NCBI GenBank assembly: GCA_032128875.1
Contig: JAVLKG010000001.1
Location: 288,001-352,000 of the forward strand
From: Candidatus Melainabacteria bacterium 17Bon1m
GTDB taxonomy: Bacteria > Cyanobacteriota > Vampirovibrionia > Obscuribacterales > Obscuribacteraceae
DNA length: 64,000 nucleotides
Reading direction: 5' to 3'
The notes beneath the pieces are model-generated. The model saw only the letters and a list, made by a program, of their open reading frames with translations. It ran no database searches and had not been told where the DNA came from. This document shows, piece by piece, positions 55,898 through 61,650 of the stretch. Position numbers and translations under genes: made by a program. Each line of letters begins with the position of its first letter. The first letter of the stretch is position 1.

Positions 55898-55982
55898 AGT
55901 GAAGAAAAGAAGTGAAGAAAGAAGTGATGAAAGAAGTGATGAAAGAAGTGATGAAAGAAGTGATGAAAGAAGTGAAGAAAGA
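55898..55982. repeat. 12-bp tandem repeat AGTGA(T/A)GAAAGA, seven units
   Basis: Read directly; first unit has one extra A. Confidence 0.92.
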
Positions 55983-56557: not shown

Positions 56558-56665
56558 TTCGGAAAAAACGAAATATCTAAAACACTGTGAGAAGCACAGA
56601 TTTGCGTTTCGATCGACGCCGAAACGCAGAAAAGTGAAGGGCCGCTTAGAGCAAGCGGCTCTTTG
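56558..56665 (+). ncRNA. Candidate ~105-nt small RNA
   Basis: ECF-type promoter, three hairpins, terminator-like end, no ATG ORF. Confidence 0.5.
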
Positions 56666-56675
56666 CTGCTTTAAG

Positions 56676-57278
56676 TCATGCAGTTAATTCGTCTTCTCGC
56701 AAATCTTGCGCAAGTCGCTCGGCATTTGCAAGTTGCCATCTCACCGATGATGTTGACATGTCTCCTGTCAAAACAATACGCGGTGCTGGAGAATCCTTTA
56801 TCAGGCAAGGAGTGGACGATATCCTCTCTTTCTGTGCGAGTTGCGGACTCTTCAATACGTCGATTACTGACAGCGAATATTTATTCTTGTCACCGCCAAA
56901 TAAGCGTGCGACGTTGGTCAGCAGTTGTTCGTCAGGAGTGCCGCAAACAAAAAGCAATAGGTTGACCTTTTCACCGCTCGAAAAAACGTTGTCTCTGATT
57001 GAAACGCTGACGTCTTTTCCGAGCTTCTCCAACCAGACAATAAGCATGTCGATGCTGAAGCGGTCTACCCTACCTTGAACGACATCTGATATTCGCGGTT
57101 GTCCAACACCCAGGACTTCTGCCGCTTGGCCTTGCGTCCAGCCCTTTTCACGGATCAATTCGGCAATAGCTGCCATTAATTCCGCGCGCAGCACTAAATT
57201 GGACGCAGCGTAATCATCTTGCGAAGAGTGATTTTTTTCGCGAGATCGATTTCCCTTCATTGCGTTACCCGATTTCAC
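56676..57278 (-). CDS. XRE (HTH_37/HigA2-like) DNA-binding domain fused to KaiB-like domain
   Basis: TQGQAAEVLGVGQPRISD...FSIDML HTH; LFVCG.P...Y.L.VIDVLKSPQLA....I..TP.L.K..P.P....GD.S matches KaiB; start may be ATG 57260. Confidence 0.85.
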   Translation of the reverse strand: MKSGNAMKGNRSREKNHSSQDDYAASNLVLRAELMAAIAELIREKGWTQGQAAEVLGVGQPRISDVVQGRVDRFSIDMLIVWLEKLGKDVSVSIRDNVFSSGEKVNLLLFVCGTPDEQLLTNVARLFGGDKNKYSLSVIDVLKSPQLAQKERISSTPCLIKDSPAPRIVLTGDMSTSSVRWQLANAERLAQDLREDELTA

Positions 57279-57453
57279 ACTTCATATACTTAATTATATA
57301 TGTGCATCCTCTGTGGGCTATCCCTCGTCTGGTATATAAAAGATTAAATAGCTAGATGAGCAAGCAGTGGACAACTTGCTTGTATCTGACTGACCGTATA
57401 GAATTAATTCTATAAAGTGATAATTTGATTGGCATATCTATTTGGGTGACTAT

Positions 57454-57882
57454 ATGGATAAGCAACCAAGTTTGATGAATCGCATATTGCTGGCCCACGA
57501 CCCGCAGAAAATCGGTTTTTTGCTCGATTCGCTGACGGGTTTTGAACTTGTCCCGGCTGCGACGGTCAAGGAAGCCGAAAGGCTCATCACTGAGAATGGA
57601 ATCAACCTGTTTATTATTGGAATTCATTTTGATGATTCCCGCGCTCTCCAGCTAATAACGGACATTCGTCTCGACGAAAAGCATAAGACGACACCCATCG
57701 TGGTTGTTCGTCTCTCTCAGTCAGAGCACACAGAGATGCTTAGAATGACGATGGACACTCTGATTAAGCTTCACATCGTCGACGAGTTTATCGAGATTGA
57801 AAATCCAGGACAGAATCAAAAGAAACTTTTTCGCAAACTCGTAGAAAAGATACTTAATCAGGCAGAGGCTATAAGCCAATAA
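57454..57882 (+). CDS. Pseudo-receiver protein (Asp to Gly)
   Basis: RILLAH, A.TVKEA, LFIIGIHF, TPIVVV receiver-like pattern without an acidic pocket. Confidence 0.65.
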   Translation: MDKQPSLMNRILLAHDPQKIGFLLDSLTGFELVPAATVKEAERLITENGINLFIIGIHFDDSRALQLITDIRLDEKHKTTPIVVVRLSQSEHTEMLRMTMDTLIKLHIVDEFIEIENPGQNQKKLFRKLVEKILNQAEAISQ

Positions 57883-58026
57883 TGGGCTGCGCAGTTTAGA
57901 TTAGCTCCAATGTTGTCTGCCGCGCAGCAGGAAGCGAAAAACACAAGAGAGACGTTTTTAAGCGTCTCTCCTCTTTGGTTGCTCACTACTTAGTTAGCTC
58001 GGGGCGTGCTGGTTTGGCTGGCGCCG

Positions 58027-58413
58027 TCACTCATTTTGCCCCTTTTTTTGACCTTCGTTTTCACCCTGGCTTTCTTTGGTTAAGCATTTGCCGAGATACA
58101 TCTTCAGTGCTTCTACGTGCTCACGGTCTGAAGTTCGGATCTTATCGAAAAGGTCTCTCAGCTCAGCACAGGGTTGTGCGTCCAATATGTATTTGTCATA
58201 TGCCTGAAGTGCTTTGGACTTTTCGTTAAGCACCATAACTACGTCGAATTGAAGGTCGGATAGCGGGAAATATCCAGTTCCTTTATCCGCTCTTACTCCT
58301 TCCTTTCCCTGACCATTGCTTTTATTTTGCTGTCCTTGATTTTGTTGATTCTGAGTTTCTTGGTTTTGTTTTCCTTGATCTTGTGCCTTGTTTTCTTTCA
58401 TAGAACTAGCCAT
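58027..58413 (-). CDS. Half-ferritin-like stress protein with Q/N-rich N-terminus
   Basis: EKSKALQAYDKY..DA...LF.KI...DREH; GAGGT RBS. Confidence 0.7.
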   Translation of the reverse strand: MASSMKENKAQDQGKQNQETQNQQNQGQQNKSNGQGKEGVRADKGTGYFPLSDLQFDVVMVLNEKSKALQAYDKYILDAQPCAELRDLFDKIRTSDREHVEALKMYLGKCLTKESQGENEGQKKGQNE

Positions 58414-58450
58414 CTCGCTTACCTCATAAAATCGATTCGCATTATGAGGA

Positions 58451-58475
58451 GAGTCAGTATTTGACTGATTGTTCC
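58451..58475 (-). promoter_or_regulatory. Putative ECF promoter variant GGAAC-N17-CTC
   Basis: One mismatch; 37 nt upstream of ATG 58413. Confidence 0.45.
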
Positions 58476-58791
58476 TCATGTATCCAACAGTGTTGAGCCT
58501 TTTGATAGCTTGTTACGAATCAAAATCCTTGTGTCTTGATCCGGTCATAGTGTGGCGACCATTGCGTTGAATGAGTGTGCCACAGGTCGCATCAGCACGT
58601 CCCCATTTGCAGTGTGCTCTTCTAAGTCCTGTTCCGGACTTATGCTTTCTACATCTAATCGTTGGACTTTTGTTTGTTTCTAAGTGAATAGCACCAAGTT
58701 GTGGAACAATAATGTTAGTCTCGAAAGCCGATGGCCCGTGCGCCTTCTGTCTAGGCGGCAAAATAGAAATGTGTGGTGGAGGAAACTATAA

Positions 58792-59163
58792 GTGAAACTG
58801 AATCCAACAAAATCTGCGGAATTATTTGATGTGCTAGAGGCAATAGGCACCGCTAGTAACTTGGACTCGGAAATTGAAAAACAACAAAAATTGGTCGCCT
58901 CTATGTCGGAATCATCGTTTTCATCAGGCGAGCGTGGTGATGCTTTGTTCTACCTTGCGCGTTTGTATTTTCAAAAGCAATCATTTCAGCAGGCAAAGAA
59001 TTGTGCTGTAGAAGCAGTAGGTTTAAGACGTTTGTTTTACGGAAAGAAGGCGAAAGAATTTCTTGATGCTGTAACTCTGGCGCGATTAATTAACGATGAA
59101 ATTGAGAAAACTGAGCCACCGAAAAGGCGGCGAAGAGGCCGCGTTAAGTCTCCTAGCATTTGA
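58792..59163 (+). CDS. Small TPR-like protein with basic PPKRRRR tail
   Basis: GGAGG RBS; paralog of 29224-29544. Confidence 0.7.
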   Translation: MKLNPTKSAELFDVLEAIGTASNLDSEIEKQQKLVASMSESSFSSGERGDALFYLARLYFQKQSFQQAKNCAVEAVGLRRLFYGKKAKEFLDAVTLARLINDEIEKTEPPKRRRRGRVKSPSI

Positions 59164-59181: not shown

Positions 59182-59973
59182 TCAAGTAATTTTTTGCGCT
59201 GCCTCGTTGGACTCCGCGCCAGAGTTGTTGTCTCTGTTCGCGGAGTCATGCGGAGGGGAGAATATGCTCGGCTCTTTTCCAAACAACTTTTCGAAATTTT
59301 CCGCGATGGCATGATAACAGCCGCAACTTGCGGCTTCTAATCCTTCACGATCTTTTACCGTGACAATGCCTCTGACATATGAGATTAGCCCCGCTTTTTG
59401 CAAGGTCATTGCCGCAACGTTCACCGCCGGTCTGCGAACTCCAAGCATTTGTCCCAGGAACTCCTGCGTTAATGGAAAATTCCTTCTATCCATTCTGTCG
59501 TGGCAAAATATCAACCAGCGTGCACATCTTGAGTCAACATTGTGCGAACGGTTGCAAGCCGCGTTTTGAGCAGTTTGATTGAAGAGCGATTGAGCATACT
59601 TGTTCATTAACAGCCCAAATGTCGGAAGGTCTTTCATAAACTGTTTGAAGTCTACGGCGGGCATTCTTAGAGTCGGACCCGGTATCTGGCAAAAACACAT
59701 CCCTTCCATTGTCTCTGCGCCGAATATTATTGGCACACCCACGACACCTTCCTTCCCTACTGTTGCAACTTCAATGAATTCGTTTTCTTCAACGTATGCA
59801 ACTATCGATTCAACGCCACTTTCCGGAAAGTACACAAAATCCAATGGTTGTCCCGATTCGAAAATAGGATACTTTGTATTGAGGCTCAGGTATTCCAAAT
59901 GTGGTAGCACCGCTTCTAATTCTTCTGGTGGCAGTCTACGTAGAATGTGATTTTCAATTTTTTCAATAACCAT
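59182..59973 (-). CDS. Crp/Fnr-family transcriptional regulator
   Basis: VYFPESG, VGKEG, R.ARWL, LTQEFLGQMLGVRR HTH. Confidence 0.95.
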   Translation of the reverse strand: MVIEKIENHILRRLPPEELEAVLPHLEYLSLNTKYPIFESGQPLDFVYFPESGVESIVAYVEENEFIEVATVGKEGVVGVPIIFGAETMEGMCFCQIPGPTLRMPAVDFKQFMKDLPTFGLLMNKYAQSLFNQTAQNAACNRSHNVDSRCARWLIFCHDRMDRRNFPLTQEFLGQMLGVRRPAVNVAAMTLQKAGLISYVRGIVTVKDREGLEAASCGCYHAIAENFEKLFGKEPSIFSPPHDSANRDNNSGAESNEAAQKIT

Positions 59974-60746: not shown

Positions 60747-61259
60747 CTAACTAGCTTTTCTTTGTCGGATGGCGCTACGTCCTTTGCTCGTGTTCATCAT
60801 TCGCATTTTTTTCTTCTTGACGGTTTCAGCCATCATTTCTAGATCTTCGTCCGAATCCTTCAACTTCGGAAGCAGCTCGTTCTCTTCTTCTTTGACGTGA
60901 TGCTCGATCAACTCTTTGAGTACTGTGACTTTAGCCTTGCAGTTTTCTTCAGAACCATCCATTCTCGACATTTCTCGAAGAATGCCTTTGACTACATGAT
61001 GCTCTTCATAAGCTTCTTTAGCTCCGTCTTCTTCTTCCACCATTAATGGAGGATAAACAATTTGCTCCTCAAGAGTGGCATGAATTGTTAATTCAGTGAT
61101 TATTTTCTCCATTAAGCTTTTGCGCTGACGGCTAGTACGTGCGCCCTCGAATTCAGCAAAAAGTGCTTCGACTTTTCTGTGATCTGCCTTGAGCATAGAG
61201 ATTATTTCGGGTTCGCCCATCATTGCACTGACGGCATCGCCAACACTCTTTACGTTCAT
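60747..61259 (-). CDS. Hemerythrin (HHE cation-binding) domain protein
   Basis: DHR.VE.LF, HATLEE..VYP, EEH, HHVKEEE; AAGGAG RBS. Confidence 0.92.
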   Translation of the reverse strand: MNVKSVGDAVSAMMGEPEIISMLKADHRKVEALFAEFEGARTSRQRKSLMEKIITELTIHATLEEQIVYPPLMVEEEDGAKEAYEEHHVVKGILREMSRMDGSEENCKAKVTVLKELIEHHVKEEENELLPKLKDSDEDLEMMAETVKKKKMRMMNTSKGRSAIRQRKAS

Positions 61260-61289
61260 ATGATTTCTCCTTTCAGTGTCTTTAGAAAT

Positions 61290-61314
61290 GACCTGAATAG
61301 GACCTTTTAGTTCC
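61290..61314 (-). promoter_or_regulatory. Putative ECF promoter GGAAC-N17-GTC
   Basis: 30 nt upstream of the hemerythrin ATG. Confidence 0.65.
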
Positions 61315-61650
61315 AGAAAATGGCGATTTTGTTCAGTCAGGCTTTGCGCAAATGAACCGGATTTTCGCTCCAATTGAAGTTTCCTCTTCTAGCCCTTGTG
61401 TCTGGATCCGGTCACTTGCAAAAACGGTTAAGAGTAATGGTGATGCACCATAGGCGGTGGCGCGCGCTTAAAGAGAACTGTTCTGTGTCCGGATGGCGTA
61501 TCAACAAGGCTCTCAAGGTCCAGCGGTACCGCACAAAACGCAATATTTGCTCACGCGGGATATAGCCATAAGTATATCGATTGCCTTATTATCGTCACTT
61601 AATTTTGGCCGCTGTGTCGCAGTTACCTCTCGTACATAAGGGTTTTACTT

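Follow-up and report, generated by a model that had tools for sequence, protein, structure and literature searches.

Domain architecture of the locus

The window (the whole stretch of DNA analyzed, 64,000 nucleotides, C1:288001-352000) contains a gene that joins an XRE-type DNA-binding domain to a domain descended from KaiB and, in divergent orientation next to it, the gene of a stand-alone pseudo-receiver. The coordinates of both genes and of the surrounding DNA elements are summarized in Table 1. The true start of the fusion gene is likely the ATG at 57260 (residue 7), which would yield a protein of 194 aa, since the N-termini of 33 homologues align from residue 7 onward. The start of the pseudo-receiver gene was set at 57454, because its homologues are 142-143 aa long.

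Table 1. Genes, protein domains and DNA elements at the XRE-KaiB locus (window coordinates).
Feature	Position	Strand	Remarks
Terminator-like hairpin	56641..56659	-	17 nt past the fusion stop; 8-bp stem with 5 GC pairs (terminator scan)
XRE-KaiB fusion gene	56676..57278	-	longest ORF, 200 aa from GTG; stop codon 56676-56678
KaiB-derived domain	56682..56966	-	residues 105-199; Pfam match, residues 108-178
HTH_37 (XRE-type) DNA-binding domain	56994..57209	-	residues 24-95; PF13744, PDB 2a6c and model match
AT-rich imperfect palindrome	57283..57304		14-nt arms, 79% complementary; just upstream of the fusion gene
Perfect 18-bp palindrome TATA-N10-TATA	57397..57414		candidate operator for the HTH dimer; 39 nt ahead of the start of the pseudo-receiver gene
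Stand-alone pseudo-receiver gene	57454..57882	+	142 aa, divergent from the fusion; Gly56 at the phospho-Asp position
Terminator-like hairpin	57947..57970	+	after the pseudo-receiver gene; 10-bp stem (terminator scan)

Both domains of the fusion protein scored well above their Pfam cut-offs, with an E value of 3.6e-21 and 75.2 bits for HTH_37 (cut-off 27) and an E value of 1.7e-13 and 50.5 bits for KaiB (PF07689, cut-off 27). Comparison with PDB sequences paired the HTH part with 2a6c (E 2.5e-13) and the KaiB part with T. elongatus KaiB 1vgl (E 3.9e-9); using HMMER, T. elongatus KaiB matched the fused domain at E 9e-10. In agreement with the HTH_37 profile, the N-terminal part of the structural model showed a helix-turn-helix fold and superimposed on 2a6c with a target-normalised TM of 0.83 and an rmsd of 1.1 (Foldseek). 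A first-pass annotation of this DNA had proposed such an XRE/HTH_37-KaiB fusion in the 200-aa reading frame. Its observation was confirmed, while its interpretation was partly supported.

Only the HTH and KaiB domains were detected by Pfam within the 200 aa of the fusion protein, and no kinase domain was found. The HisKA and HATPase_c domains of SasA-type kinases are lacking, and a match to NF006800 (31.6 bits versus 342) was confined to the KaiB-like part. Nor does the protein qualify as canonical clock KaiB. The equivalog models TIGR02654 and NF006798 gave 31.9 bits versus 145.3 and 35 bits versus 110, respectively, and the gene is not in an operon with kaiC, its neighbours being the pseudo-receiver gene and small ORFs with kaiBC on another contig. 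A role of the thioredoxin-like domain as redox sensor was considered and rejected, as it contains no CxxC motif and both of its cysteines (C112, C158) give way to other residues in many members of the family.

Conservation and distribution of the fusion

Both domains were present in 39 of the 40 clusters found (90% identity), which share 51-100% identity with the protein of the window, and in eight genomes the match ran uninterrupted across both domains. The fusion of XRE-HTH and KaiB is a genuine, conserved architecture. The eight genomes were found among 104 of one non-photosynthetic Melainabacteria family; none of 297 genomes from eleven other families of the class carried the fusion. A profile search of the present genome for Photo_RC gave no match. 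As far as genomes were searched, the cassette was found only in some Obscuribacteraceae. The labels of five fusion loci read Obscuribacterales or Melainabacteria, and two SMAG labels place their loci elsewhere. A metagenome scan added one further two-domain locus (L086) on a contig of 1.6 kb, too short to judge the neighbour, on which the pseudo-receiver was not found by tblastn. Longer fused forms were not seen among 3231 candidates of 351-2000 aa, which is weak evidence. A full-text literature search, with subscription-only papers and supplementary files outside its reach, retrieved no published description of an XRE-KaiB fusion, in line with the first-pass annotation, to which none was known.

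Conservation within the protein was strongest in the C-terminal half of the KaiB domain, with 12 of the 37 invariant columns of the family alignment located between residues 153 and 183. An SxRWQL segment is invariant and family-specific. A charged tail of 25-60 residues, continuing helix alpha-3, was observed in 33 of 34 aligned family members, unlike the copy of the window, which lacks it.

Predicted fold of the KaiB domain

KaiB is the textbook example of a metamorphic protein, the rare fold-switched (FS) form of which serves as a hub recruiting KaiA, CikA and KaiC. Cyanobacterial KaiB takes this shape only when engaging partners. An AlphaFold (AF2) model of the fusion protein, built from 34 family sequences only, showed the KaiB domain in the thioredoxin-like, FS topology with a block pLDDT of 89-97 over the domain. 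According to this predicted model it belongs to the thioredoxin-like or KaiB folds, and the thioredoxin-like state favoured in the first-pass annotation is in agreement with the model. The best Foldseek matches were fold-switch-stabilised KaiB (5jwo_B, 5jyt, 5jwr), Legionella KaiB (4kun; TM 0.69, rmsd 2.4), N-SasA (6x61, 1t4y) and thioredoxins. Also matched were 8fwj and 8ubh, and 5n8y, identical in sequence to 4kso, occupied rank 13. The ground-state KaiB entries 1vgl, 2qke, 1r5p and 1wwj were absent among the matches listed. It has to be kept in mind that AF2 with broad alignments favours the FS state of KaiB; AF2 predictions from local alignments matched the favoured state of characterised KaiBs, and naturally FS-locked KaiBs exist (excerpts of PMC10808063).

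In the HMMER alignment with T. elongatus KaiB, the prolines P63, P70 and P72 have their counterparts in P157, P164 and P166, while the FS-stabilising positions P71, G89 and Y94 are naturally changed to A165, N185 and A190. The mutations engineered to stabilise the FS state are Y8A, P71A, G89A, D91R and Y94A, as given in an excerpt of bioRxiv 10.1101/2024.05.21.594594. Glutamine and alanine, placed at G89 and D91 by the earlier alignment by eye, were not recovered there: HMMER aligned these positions with N185 and E187, an ungapped extension with L183 and N185. In the last helix the alignment is uncertain, with a shift of two residues between the versions with and without a gap; Gly89 is absent from the fused domain in both, and the change of D91 to Glu187 is conservative.

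With the FS-locked KaiBs (Legionella Lpp1115, 4kun; T. elongatus vestitus KaiB-TV-4, 8ubh) the fused domain shares the Pfam KaiB family, the core motifs, the three prolines and the predicted FS topology. Those proteins are stand-alone and of ~100 aa, whereas the fused domain is neither stand-alone nor encoded beside kaiC; it carries the invariant SxRWQL, and its C-terminus is a long helix instead of the canonical one. Sequence features and modelling alike favour an FS-like fold that is fixed, and the KaiB domain as modelled appears fixed in the fold-switched shape.

The divergent pseudo-receiver

The divergent neighbour had been annotated as a receiver-like protein with glycine at the phospho-Asp site. 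Indeed, Gly56 aligns with the phospho-acceptor Asp of two canonical receivers, and among 12 members of the family this position is occupied by Gly in 11 and by Glu in one. Since Gly is found at the Asp site and PF00072 remained below its cut-off (14.1 bits versus 30.2), the protein was classified as a pseudo-receiver. Its AF2 model displayed a CheY-like (beta-alpha)5 fold (pLDDT 87, pTM 0.84), and Foldseek yielded 269 matches at E<=0.001, all of them response-regulator receivers among the matches listed.

In six of the eight genomes, the fusion is flanked by a divergent gene for a receiver-fold protein in which Gly (Glu once) replaces the phospho-Asp, so that the gene neighbourhood is conserved to this extent. 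The divergent slot is taken by a canonical receiver in the seventh genome and by a PAS protein in the eighth. As two of the eight fusion genomes do not have its family at the divergent position, the pseudo-receiver is not a universal partner. Neither is its family exclusive to the cassette, because its profile, which also matches many ordinary receivers, gave matches in 88 of the 104 genomes.

The arrangement resembles the complex of the CikA pseudo-receiver with fold-switched KaiB (5jyv), in which a KaiB domain in the FS fold (predicted here) is combined with a receiver-fold protein without a phospho-Asp. There, the beta-2 strands of fold-switched KaiB and of the CikA pseudo-receiver pair with each other, and the exchange N29A allows pairing without KaiC (excerpt of PMC6378743). 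This strand is conserved in the fusion, with five of seven residues identical to T. elongatus KaiB and with A124 at the N29 position, as in the engineered binder. In contrast, the CikA part is the C-terminal domain of a GAF-histidine-kinase, whereas the pseudo-receiver of the window is a stand-alone protein for which no sequence relationship to CikA was detected other than the shared receiver fold; a contact with the KaiB domain is what we infer here. Complex prediction with the KaiB domain (residues 98-200, 34-row alignment) and the pseudo-receiver (12-row alignment) gave a score of 0.00 (mark 0.32) and counts neither way. Elsewhere, four proteins (P0084, P0097, P0163, P0198) were found in which a KaiB domain is joined with a receiver-class signalling domain, and as they fuse both, receiver and KaiB domain types work together. 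These proteins carry the receiver in cis and no HTH, whereas here the receiver-like protein is encoded by a separate gene and KaiB is fused to a DNA-binding domain.

Intergenic DNA

The perfect palindrome between the two genes scored 9/9, which was reached by none of 500 shuffles. The TATA-N10-TATA pattern occurs once in the window, compared to 0.12 expected occurrences, and the palindrome was the sole match in the 7.55-Mb genome at <=3 mismatches. Because no second copy was found in the genome at this threshold, no wider regulon is proposed. TATA-N10-TATA was present in seven of nine homologous upstream regions, six of which score >=7/9 as palindromes, and its inner bases vary between loci yet remain symmetric. 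The exact form was absent from two of the nine regions, and in one region the motif is a poor palindrome (4/9). The element is AT-rich and TATA-ended and overlaps a predicted -10 hexamer; it could represent promoter architecture instead of an operator. The imperfect palindrome in front of the fusion gene may serve as a further operator or belong to a promoter.

Similarly placed AT-rich sequences were noticed by eye in the loci L009 and L012.

Proposed mechanism

From the domain architecture, its conservation, the gene pair, the palindrome and the predicted folds we infer a self-regulating two-gene cassette, in which a fold-switch-locked KaiB-derived domain would bind a protein partner, with the pseudo-receiver as the most probable candidate and KaiC as a possible one where present. 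We give this reading about even chances. The XRE/HTH_37 domain would probably bind the 18-bp palindrome as a dimer in the shared divergent promoter region, and the bound factor would control the pseudo-receiver gene together with its own gene. The C-terminal domain, if fixed in the FS shape, would act as a protein-docking module. Its likeliest ligand would be the pseudo-receiver inherited together with it, bound at the beta-2 edge strand in the manner of the CikA pseudo-receiver, and KaiC may be a second ligand where KaiBC is present, as in this genome. Partner binding would then shift the operator occupancy of the factor.

The known output routes from the Kai proteins to gene expression are the kinases SasA and CikA and the response regulator RpaA. 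A KaiB domain apparently FS-locked on a DNA-binding domain would, if true, constitute a new and much shorter output logic, in a cassette that includes a pseudo-receiver partner and one clear candidate for the operator, from a non-photosynthetic sister lineage of the cyanobacteria. With two proteins of ~200 and 142 aa and one DNA region of 175 bp, the system is small and lends itself to easy testing in vitro. It could find use as a naturally occurring example of a fixed FS fold, in probing the evolution of KaiB-receiver contacts and as a compact part for synthetic circuits.

Alternative explanations

A possible but doubtful alternative is that of a KaiC-coupled output factor. The KaiB domain would dock on the CI ring of the organism's own KaiC like the N-terminal domain of SasA, the state of KaiC would switch DNA binding of the HTH, and the pseudo-receiver would be a competitor or side player. 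No kaiC, kaiA or HigB-like toxin had been reported for the window in the first pass, and KaiC-family and KaiA matches were indeed absent from the 64 kb. Elsewhere in the genome, KaiC-family matches were located on C2, on C3 and at C1:781457, with a kaiB-kaiC operon on contig C2, while the profile search detected no kaiA. A KaiC-coupled function is supported by this kaiBC operon without kaiA and by the resemblance of the model to KaiC-CI-bound KaiB and N-SasA (5jwo, 6x61, 8fwj). The fused domain is 43% identical to the genome's own KaiB and groups near it in a quick tree. Moreover, the C-terminal fold-switching half, most conserved in the fusion family, forms the CI interface in cyanobacteria (excerpt of PMC6378743). 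KaiC orthologues were enriched, being present in five of the eight fusion genomes versus 16 of 96 others (Fisher p = 0.008), a statistic that ignores the kinship of the genomes. However, the genomes G132 (95% complete), G148 (90%) and G248 (65%) carry the fusion with its invariant SxRWQL but revealed neither a KaiC at E<=1e-5 nor a second KaiB. KaiC can therefore not be a general partner. The coupling to a KaiC-like ATPase suggested in the first pass thus fails as an obligate function; it is compatible with the kaiBC of the present genome. Further points against this alternative are that the fusion never adjoins kaiC in the loci seen and that the invariant RWQL segment is unlike canonical KaiB at the aligned positions. 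The kaiBC operon, the KaiC enrichment and a gene pair of the genome G246 also speak for a link of the proposed cassette to Kai systems. In G246, a gene encoding a CheB-pseudo-receiver-coiled-coil protein lies 4 bp downstream of a KaiC-family gene, and over 260 aa its product shares 47% identity with the pseudo-receiver that accompanies the fusion in G132.

SasA itself offers a parallel, in that its KaiB-like domain of thioredoxin fold is likewise attached to an output module and the model of the window's protein matches KaiC-CI-bound N-SasA (6x61, 1t4y). The KaiB-like domain is N-terminal in SasA but C-terminal in the fusion, and the histidine kinase output of SasA contrasts with an XRE HTH here. 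At the sequence level, true KaiB (E 9e-10) resembles the fused domain far more closely than N-SasA (E 5e-5) does.

We consider it unlikely that the protein is an ordinary autoregulating XRE repressor, with the KaiB-like domain and the charged tail serving for oligomerisation only, no signalling partner, and the neighbour as a regulated gene. C-terminal oligomerisation domains are common on XRE proteins, the charged tail of the homologues is coiled-coil-like, and a genome-unique operator-like palindrome fits purely local control. Ground-state KaiB forms dimers and tetramers (excerpt of PMC6378743). On the other hand, conservation peaks in that half of the KaiB domain which in KaiB is the KaiC-CI interface, and the beta-2 edge, the contact for CikA and KaiA, is largely retained. 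The protein of the window keeps its KaiB domain without having the tail. The three signalling families in the divergent slot (pseudo-receiver, receiver, PAS) look like signalling partners rather than arbitrary cargo. If the KaiB domain merely oligomerises, the finding shrinks to an unusual domain combination.

Rather improbable in our view is a clock output on a single polypeptide in those non-photosynthetic Melainabacteria that retain a KaiBC timer without KaiA, in which a permanently fold-switched KaiB domain would tether the XRE repressor to the post-hydrolysis, KaiB-receptive CI ring of KaiC and off its single operator, with the pseudo-receiver competing on the beta-2 edge like CikA or KaiA. 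If true, the clock would be read by directly sequestering a transcription factor and not through the SasA/CikA-RpaA phosphorelay.

A toxin-antitoxin or defence-type module, with the HTH_37/HigA2-like protein as antitoxin and its neighbour as toxin, is very unlikely. HTH_37 does include HigA2-type antitoxins, and weak matches to 6af3, 7ewc and the Y4mF and HipB models were obtained. The N-terminal 70 residues align over their full length with the HTH_37/HigA2-type protein NE_1354 (2a6c) at 42% identity, and the model superimposes on it with an rmsd of 1.1. The distribution is patchy, with the fusion in one of 12 other genomes of the same genus, and the islet that contains the cassette is variable: in G144, a genome of the same genus, a different gene is found between the same flanking genes. 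However, HTH_37/HigA2-type proteins are single-domain and of ~80-120 aa, many of them antitoxins beside a toxin, whereas the fusion adds KaiB and has no toxin neighbour. The genes are divergent and not co-transcribed, and the fold of the neighbour is that of a receiver and of no known toxin. PADLOC gave no match for either protein, Pfam detected no toxin family in the flanking small ORFs, and an adjacent co-transcribed HigB2/RelE-like toxin was not found among the neighbours by either method; this lack of a visible toxin partner makes it unlikely that the protein acts as an antitoxin. The search for split forms yielded four stand-alone HTH relatives of the same family (L020, L039, L120, L121), none with a KaiB domain or pseudo-receiver alongside.

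An assembly or gene-calling artefact joining two genes, for which no supporting point was found, is practically out of the question given the continuous frame without a stop between the domains, the 39 two-domain clusters from several sources, the uninterrupted match in eight genomes, and contigs of four runs from two samples that match the fusion region with 0 differences. The domain junction itself was covered with 0 differences by contigs of an independent lake metagenome run (56935-57577). Three runs of one sample labelled as RNA-Seq, the contigs of which may contain DNA and which may stem from the source sample, carried the region on contigs of 3.2-4.6 kb, again with 0 differences.

The fusion and its family

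The first-pass annotation had read one ORF as an XRE helix-turn-helix joined to a KaiB domain. The profile scan agreed, both Pfam matches (HTH_37 and KaiB) far exceeding their curated cut-offs, and the fusion architecture is near certain. Against PDB sequences the N-terminal part was closest to the XRE protein 2a6c (E 2.5e-13), and the C-terminal part matched T. elongatus KaiB 1vgl (E 3.9e-9) and other KaiBs, with N-SasA weaker. Because the full-length KaiB equivalog models of NCBIfam were matched only in part (32-35 bits versus cut-offs of 110-145), we regard the C-terminal part as a domain of KaiB type and the protein as distinct from canonical KaiB. Since aligned homologues begin at residue 7 of the window fusion, the ATG at 57260 appears the likelier start codon. 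A terminator-like hairpin lies 3' of the stop codon.

Features of the cassette and its surroundings (window coordinates unless residues are given)
Feature	Position	Strand	Remarks
XRE-KaiB fusion ORF	56676-57278	-	200 aa, ORF listing
HTH_37 domain of fusion	residues 24-95	-	Pfam, E 3.6e-21
KaiB domain of fusion	residues 108-178	-	Pfam, E 1.7e-13
Pseudo-receiver gene	57454-57882	+	142 aa, divergent from fusion
Perfect 18-bp palindrome, candidate operator	57397-57414		inside 175-bp intergenic region
Second palindrome	57283-57304		AT-rich, imperfect
Islet compared with L128	56143-59252		cassette plus two small ORFs, between conserved 63-aa ORF and Crp-like gene
Small ORF in islet	58027-58479		Gln- and Asn-rich
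Second small ORF in islet	58792-59163		
Crp/cNMP-binding regulator	59182-59973	-	near cassette
Hemerythrin-domain protein	60747-61373	-	near cassette
12-bp tandem repeat	55906-55982		6.4 copies, 96% matches

A search of 5.8 billion proteins returned 40 clusters, 39 of them with both Pfam domains (51-100% identity). The family alignment comprised 34 of these 39, the short entries P0008, P0020, P0022, P0023 and P0031 being omitted. Invariant columns numbered 37, the HTH core among them; in the KaiB part I153, P157, L159, K161, P164, G172, D173, S178, R180, W181, Q182 and L183 were invariant. In all 33 other aligned members the C-terminus runs on as a charged tail of 25-60 residues, which the window copy lacks. 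The region was matched with zero differences by contigs of three runs from a single sample and by those of an independent lake run. A misassembly between the domains, considered at first pass, is contradicted by the 39 two-domain clusters and by one lake-run contig that spans the junction; judged by these sequences, the fusion is a protein family and not an artefact.

Using the KaiB part alone as query, 331 matches were obtained at E<=0.001 among 1.84 billion representatives, and because merely 6 of them reached E<=1e-10, the fused KaiB domain is a small, tight subgroup. A quick tree (18 rows, the 119-aa entry P0051 included) joined the fused domains in a single clade (SH-aLRT 99), and this clade grouped with the genome's own KaiB at weak support. 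That KaiB shares 43% identity with the fused domain across 70 residues.

Distribution and genomic setting

A pattern scan with one genome per species yielded 77 loci, both domains being covered in 5 only; their labels were Obscuribacterales, Obscuribacteraceae and Melainabacteria, with two SMAG records labelled other cyanobacteria. These loci are identical to those of 5 of the 8 genomes, the window's own counted, in which the two-domain fusion was detected when 401 genomes of the class were searched with profiles. All 8 belong to the window's family, Obscuribacteraceae; the eleven other families searched (297 genomes) gave none. In the window's genus 1 of 12 other genomes carried the fusion. 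No photosynthetic reaction-centre match was found in the window's genome (7.55 Mb, 93% complete).

In a genome of the same genus (L128, G144:C36) the flanking genes (63-aa ORF and Crp-like gene) have homologues with one different gene between them, dehydrogenase-like as judged by eye, so the cassette of fusion and pseudo-receiver sits in a variable islet. The 12-bp repeat lies in non-coding DNA that separates galT from the cassette; on the plus strand it reads as a 52-aa ORF of a repeating four-residue unit.

The divergent pseudo-receiver

In the 57454 protein Pfam detected only weak receiver similarity. Its AlphaFold2 (AF2) model showed a clean (beta-alpha)5 fold (pLDDT 87, pTM 0.84), and of 269 Foldseek matches at E<=0.001 every one listed was a receiver domain. 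Compared with two canonical receivers, the protein has Gly at the phospho-Asp position and lacks the acidic pair; 12 family members showed Gly (11) or Glu (1) at that position. Conservation of the neighbourhood, suggested for testing at first pass, held for six of the eight fusion genomes, where a member of the pseudo-receiver group occupies the divergent slot, and failed in G230 (canonical receiver) and G248 (PAS protein, then a small HTH protein). The partners at loci L117 and L119, outside the profile-building set, were found by the pseudo-receiver profile at E 4e-26 and 9e-20. This profile is not exclusive, matching receivers in 88 of the family's 104 genomes; the six cassette partners had the six best scores (160-203 bits; next best 137). 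At L011:1562-2670 and L013:5103-5357 a further small XRE-type HTH gene follows the gene divergent from the fusion, whose product is a PAS protein in one locus and a pseudo-receiver in the second. In these two related loci the cassette may thus exist in a form with three genes.

Predicted fold of the KaiB domain

AF2 was run on the fusion with input restricted to the 34 family sequences, and the model gives its KaiB domain a thioredoxin-like, fold-switched topology (block pLDDT 89-97). The top Foldseek matches of the model were KaiBs stabilised in the fold-switched (FS), thioredoxin-like fold (5jwo_B, 5jyt, 5jwr_D), Legionella KaiB (4kun), N-SasA (6x61, 1t4y), Rhodobacter KaiB bound to KaiC (8fwj) and KaiB-TV-4 (8ubh), with thioredoxins after these; 5n8y, of the same sequence as 4kso, ranked 13 among the matches listed. 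None of the ground-state KaiBs matched by sequence (1vgl, 2qke, 1r5p, 1wwj) was among the Foldseek matches listed. Excerpts of PMC10808063 qualify this fold call: with a broad alignment AF2 predicts FS even for T. elongatus KaiB; with local alignments, however, its call agreed with the favoured state of characterised KaiBs, and naturally FS-fixed KaiBs exist.

In HMMER alignments P63, P70 and P72 of T. elongatus KaiB are retained as P157, P164 and P166, and P71 pairs with A165, G89 with N185, D91 with E187 and Y94 with A190. Q and A, placed by eye at G89 and D91 in the first-pass annotation, were not reproduced. FS-stabilising substitutions given in excerpts of bioRxiv 10.1101/2024.05.21.594594 and PMC6378743 are Y8A, P71A, G89A, D91R and Y94A; in the fusion D91 is replaced conservatively, by Glu187. 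The residues of the KaiB part agree in part with the FS fold. The long helix extending into the charged tail of the homologues would suit a stable alpha-3 better than a ground-state strand. We consider an FS-like fold probable.

The candidate operator

The candidate operator is the sole TATA-N10-TATA in the window (0.12 expected), and in the whole genome both the sole one scoring at least 8/9 and the sole 18-mer within 3 mismatches. This form recurs in 7 of 9 homologous upstream regions (palindrome score 9/9 in two, 8/9 in three, 7/9 in one, 4/9 in one), and its inner bases vary among loci yet stay symmetric; the L010 and L086 regions hold degenerate copies only, judged by eye. The palindrome and a predicted minus-strand -10 hexamer overlap, so that a function in the promoter is not distinguishable from one as operator. 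Its use as an operator is somewhat favoured.

Kai components and proposed mechanism

The kaiC that was to be looked for elsewhere in the genome was located beside kaiB in an operon on contig C2 (170760-172561; L004:1163-2991), its products being a ~99-aa KaiB and a 505-aa KaiC with two domains; KaiA was not found in this genome. A third, divergent KaiB-like ORF (96 aa, contig C22, L003:1468-1758; 23 bits, under the Pfam cut-off) closely follows an ORF of 212 aa, degenerate GGDEF-like by eye. KaiC orthologues of at least 57% identity occur in 21 of the 104 genomes of this non-photosynthetic family, namely in 5 of 8 fusion genomes versus 16 of 96 others (Fisher p = 0.008, uncorrected for relatedness). 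In the fusion genomes G132, G148 and G248, KaiC was undetected at E<=1e-5 and no KaiB domain other than that of the fusion was matched.

Public data contain receiver-KaiB fusion proteins of 216-240 aa (P0084, P0097, P0163, P0198). The minus strand of G246:C165 (L140, 1123-3429) has a KaiC-family ATPase gene and, 4 bp after it, a gene whose 466-aa product combines a CheB methylesterase domain, a Gly-type pseudo-receiver and a charged coiled coil and is 47% identical over 260 aa to the G132 cassette partner. These fusions and this gene pair tie receiver-type domains to Kai components. In cyanobacteria the CikA pseudo-receiver is bound by fold-switched KaiB via a beta-2/beta-2 sheet, a contact strengthened by KaiB N29A (excerpts of PMC6378743). 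Five of the 7 beta-2 residues in the fusion's KaiB domain match T. elongatus KaiB, whose N29 is aligned with A124 of the fusion.

We propose a self-contained cassette in which an XRE factor, paired with a pseudo-receiver, would act at the single palindromic site between both genes, its KaiB-derived, FS-like domain serving as docking module. This composite picture is the best supported, with about an even chance of being correct. As the favoured mechanism, the docking module would bind the pseudo-receiver, a tentative step falling slightly short of an even chance. In genomes with KaiC, docking of KaiC on the fusion would be conceivable, and appears rather unlikely.

A KaiB-like domain fused to an output module is already known from SasA; because SasA-type and receiver-KaiB fusions precede it, the XRE-KaiB fusion is not a new category. 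The first-pass annotation was aware of no described XRE-KaiB fusion, and a full-text search of the main texts of openly accessible papers found no published description. In the giant proteins P0058, P0070 and P0075 (1268-4092 aa), 6-9 separate stretches match the KaiB-domain query.
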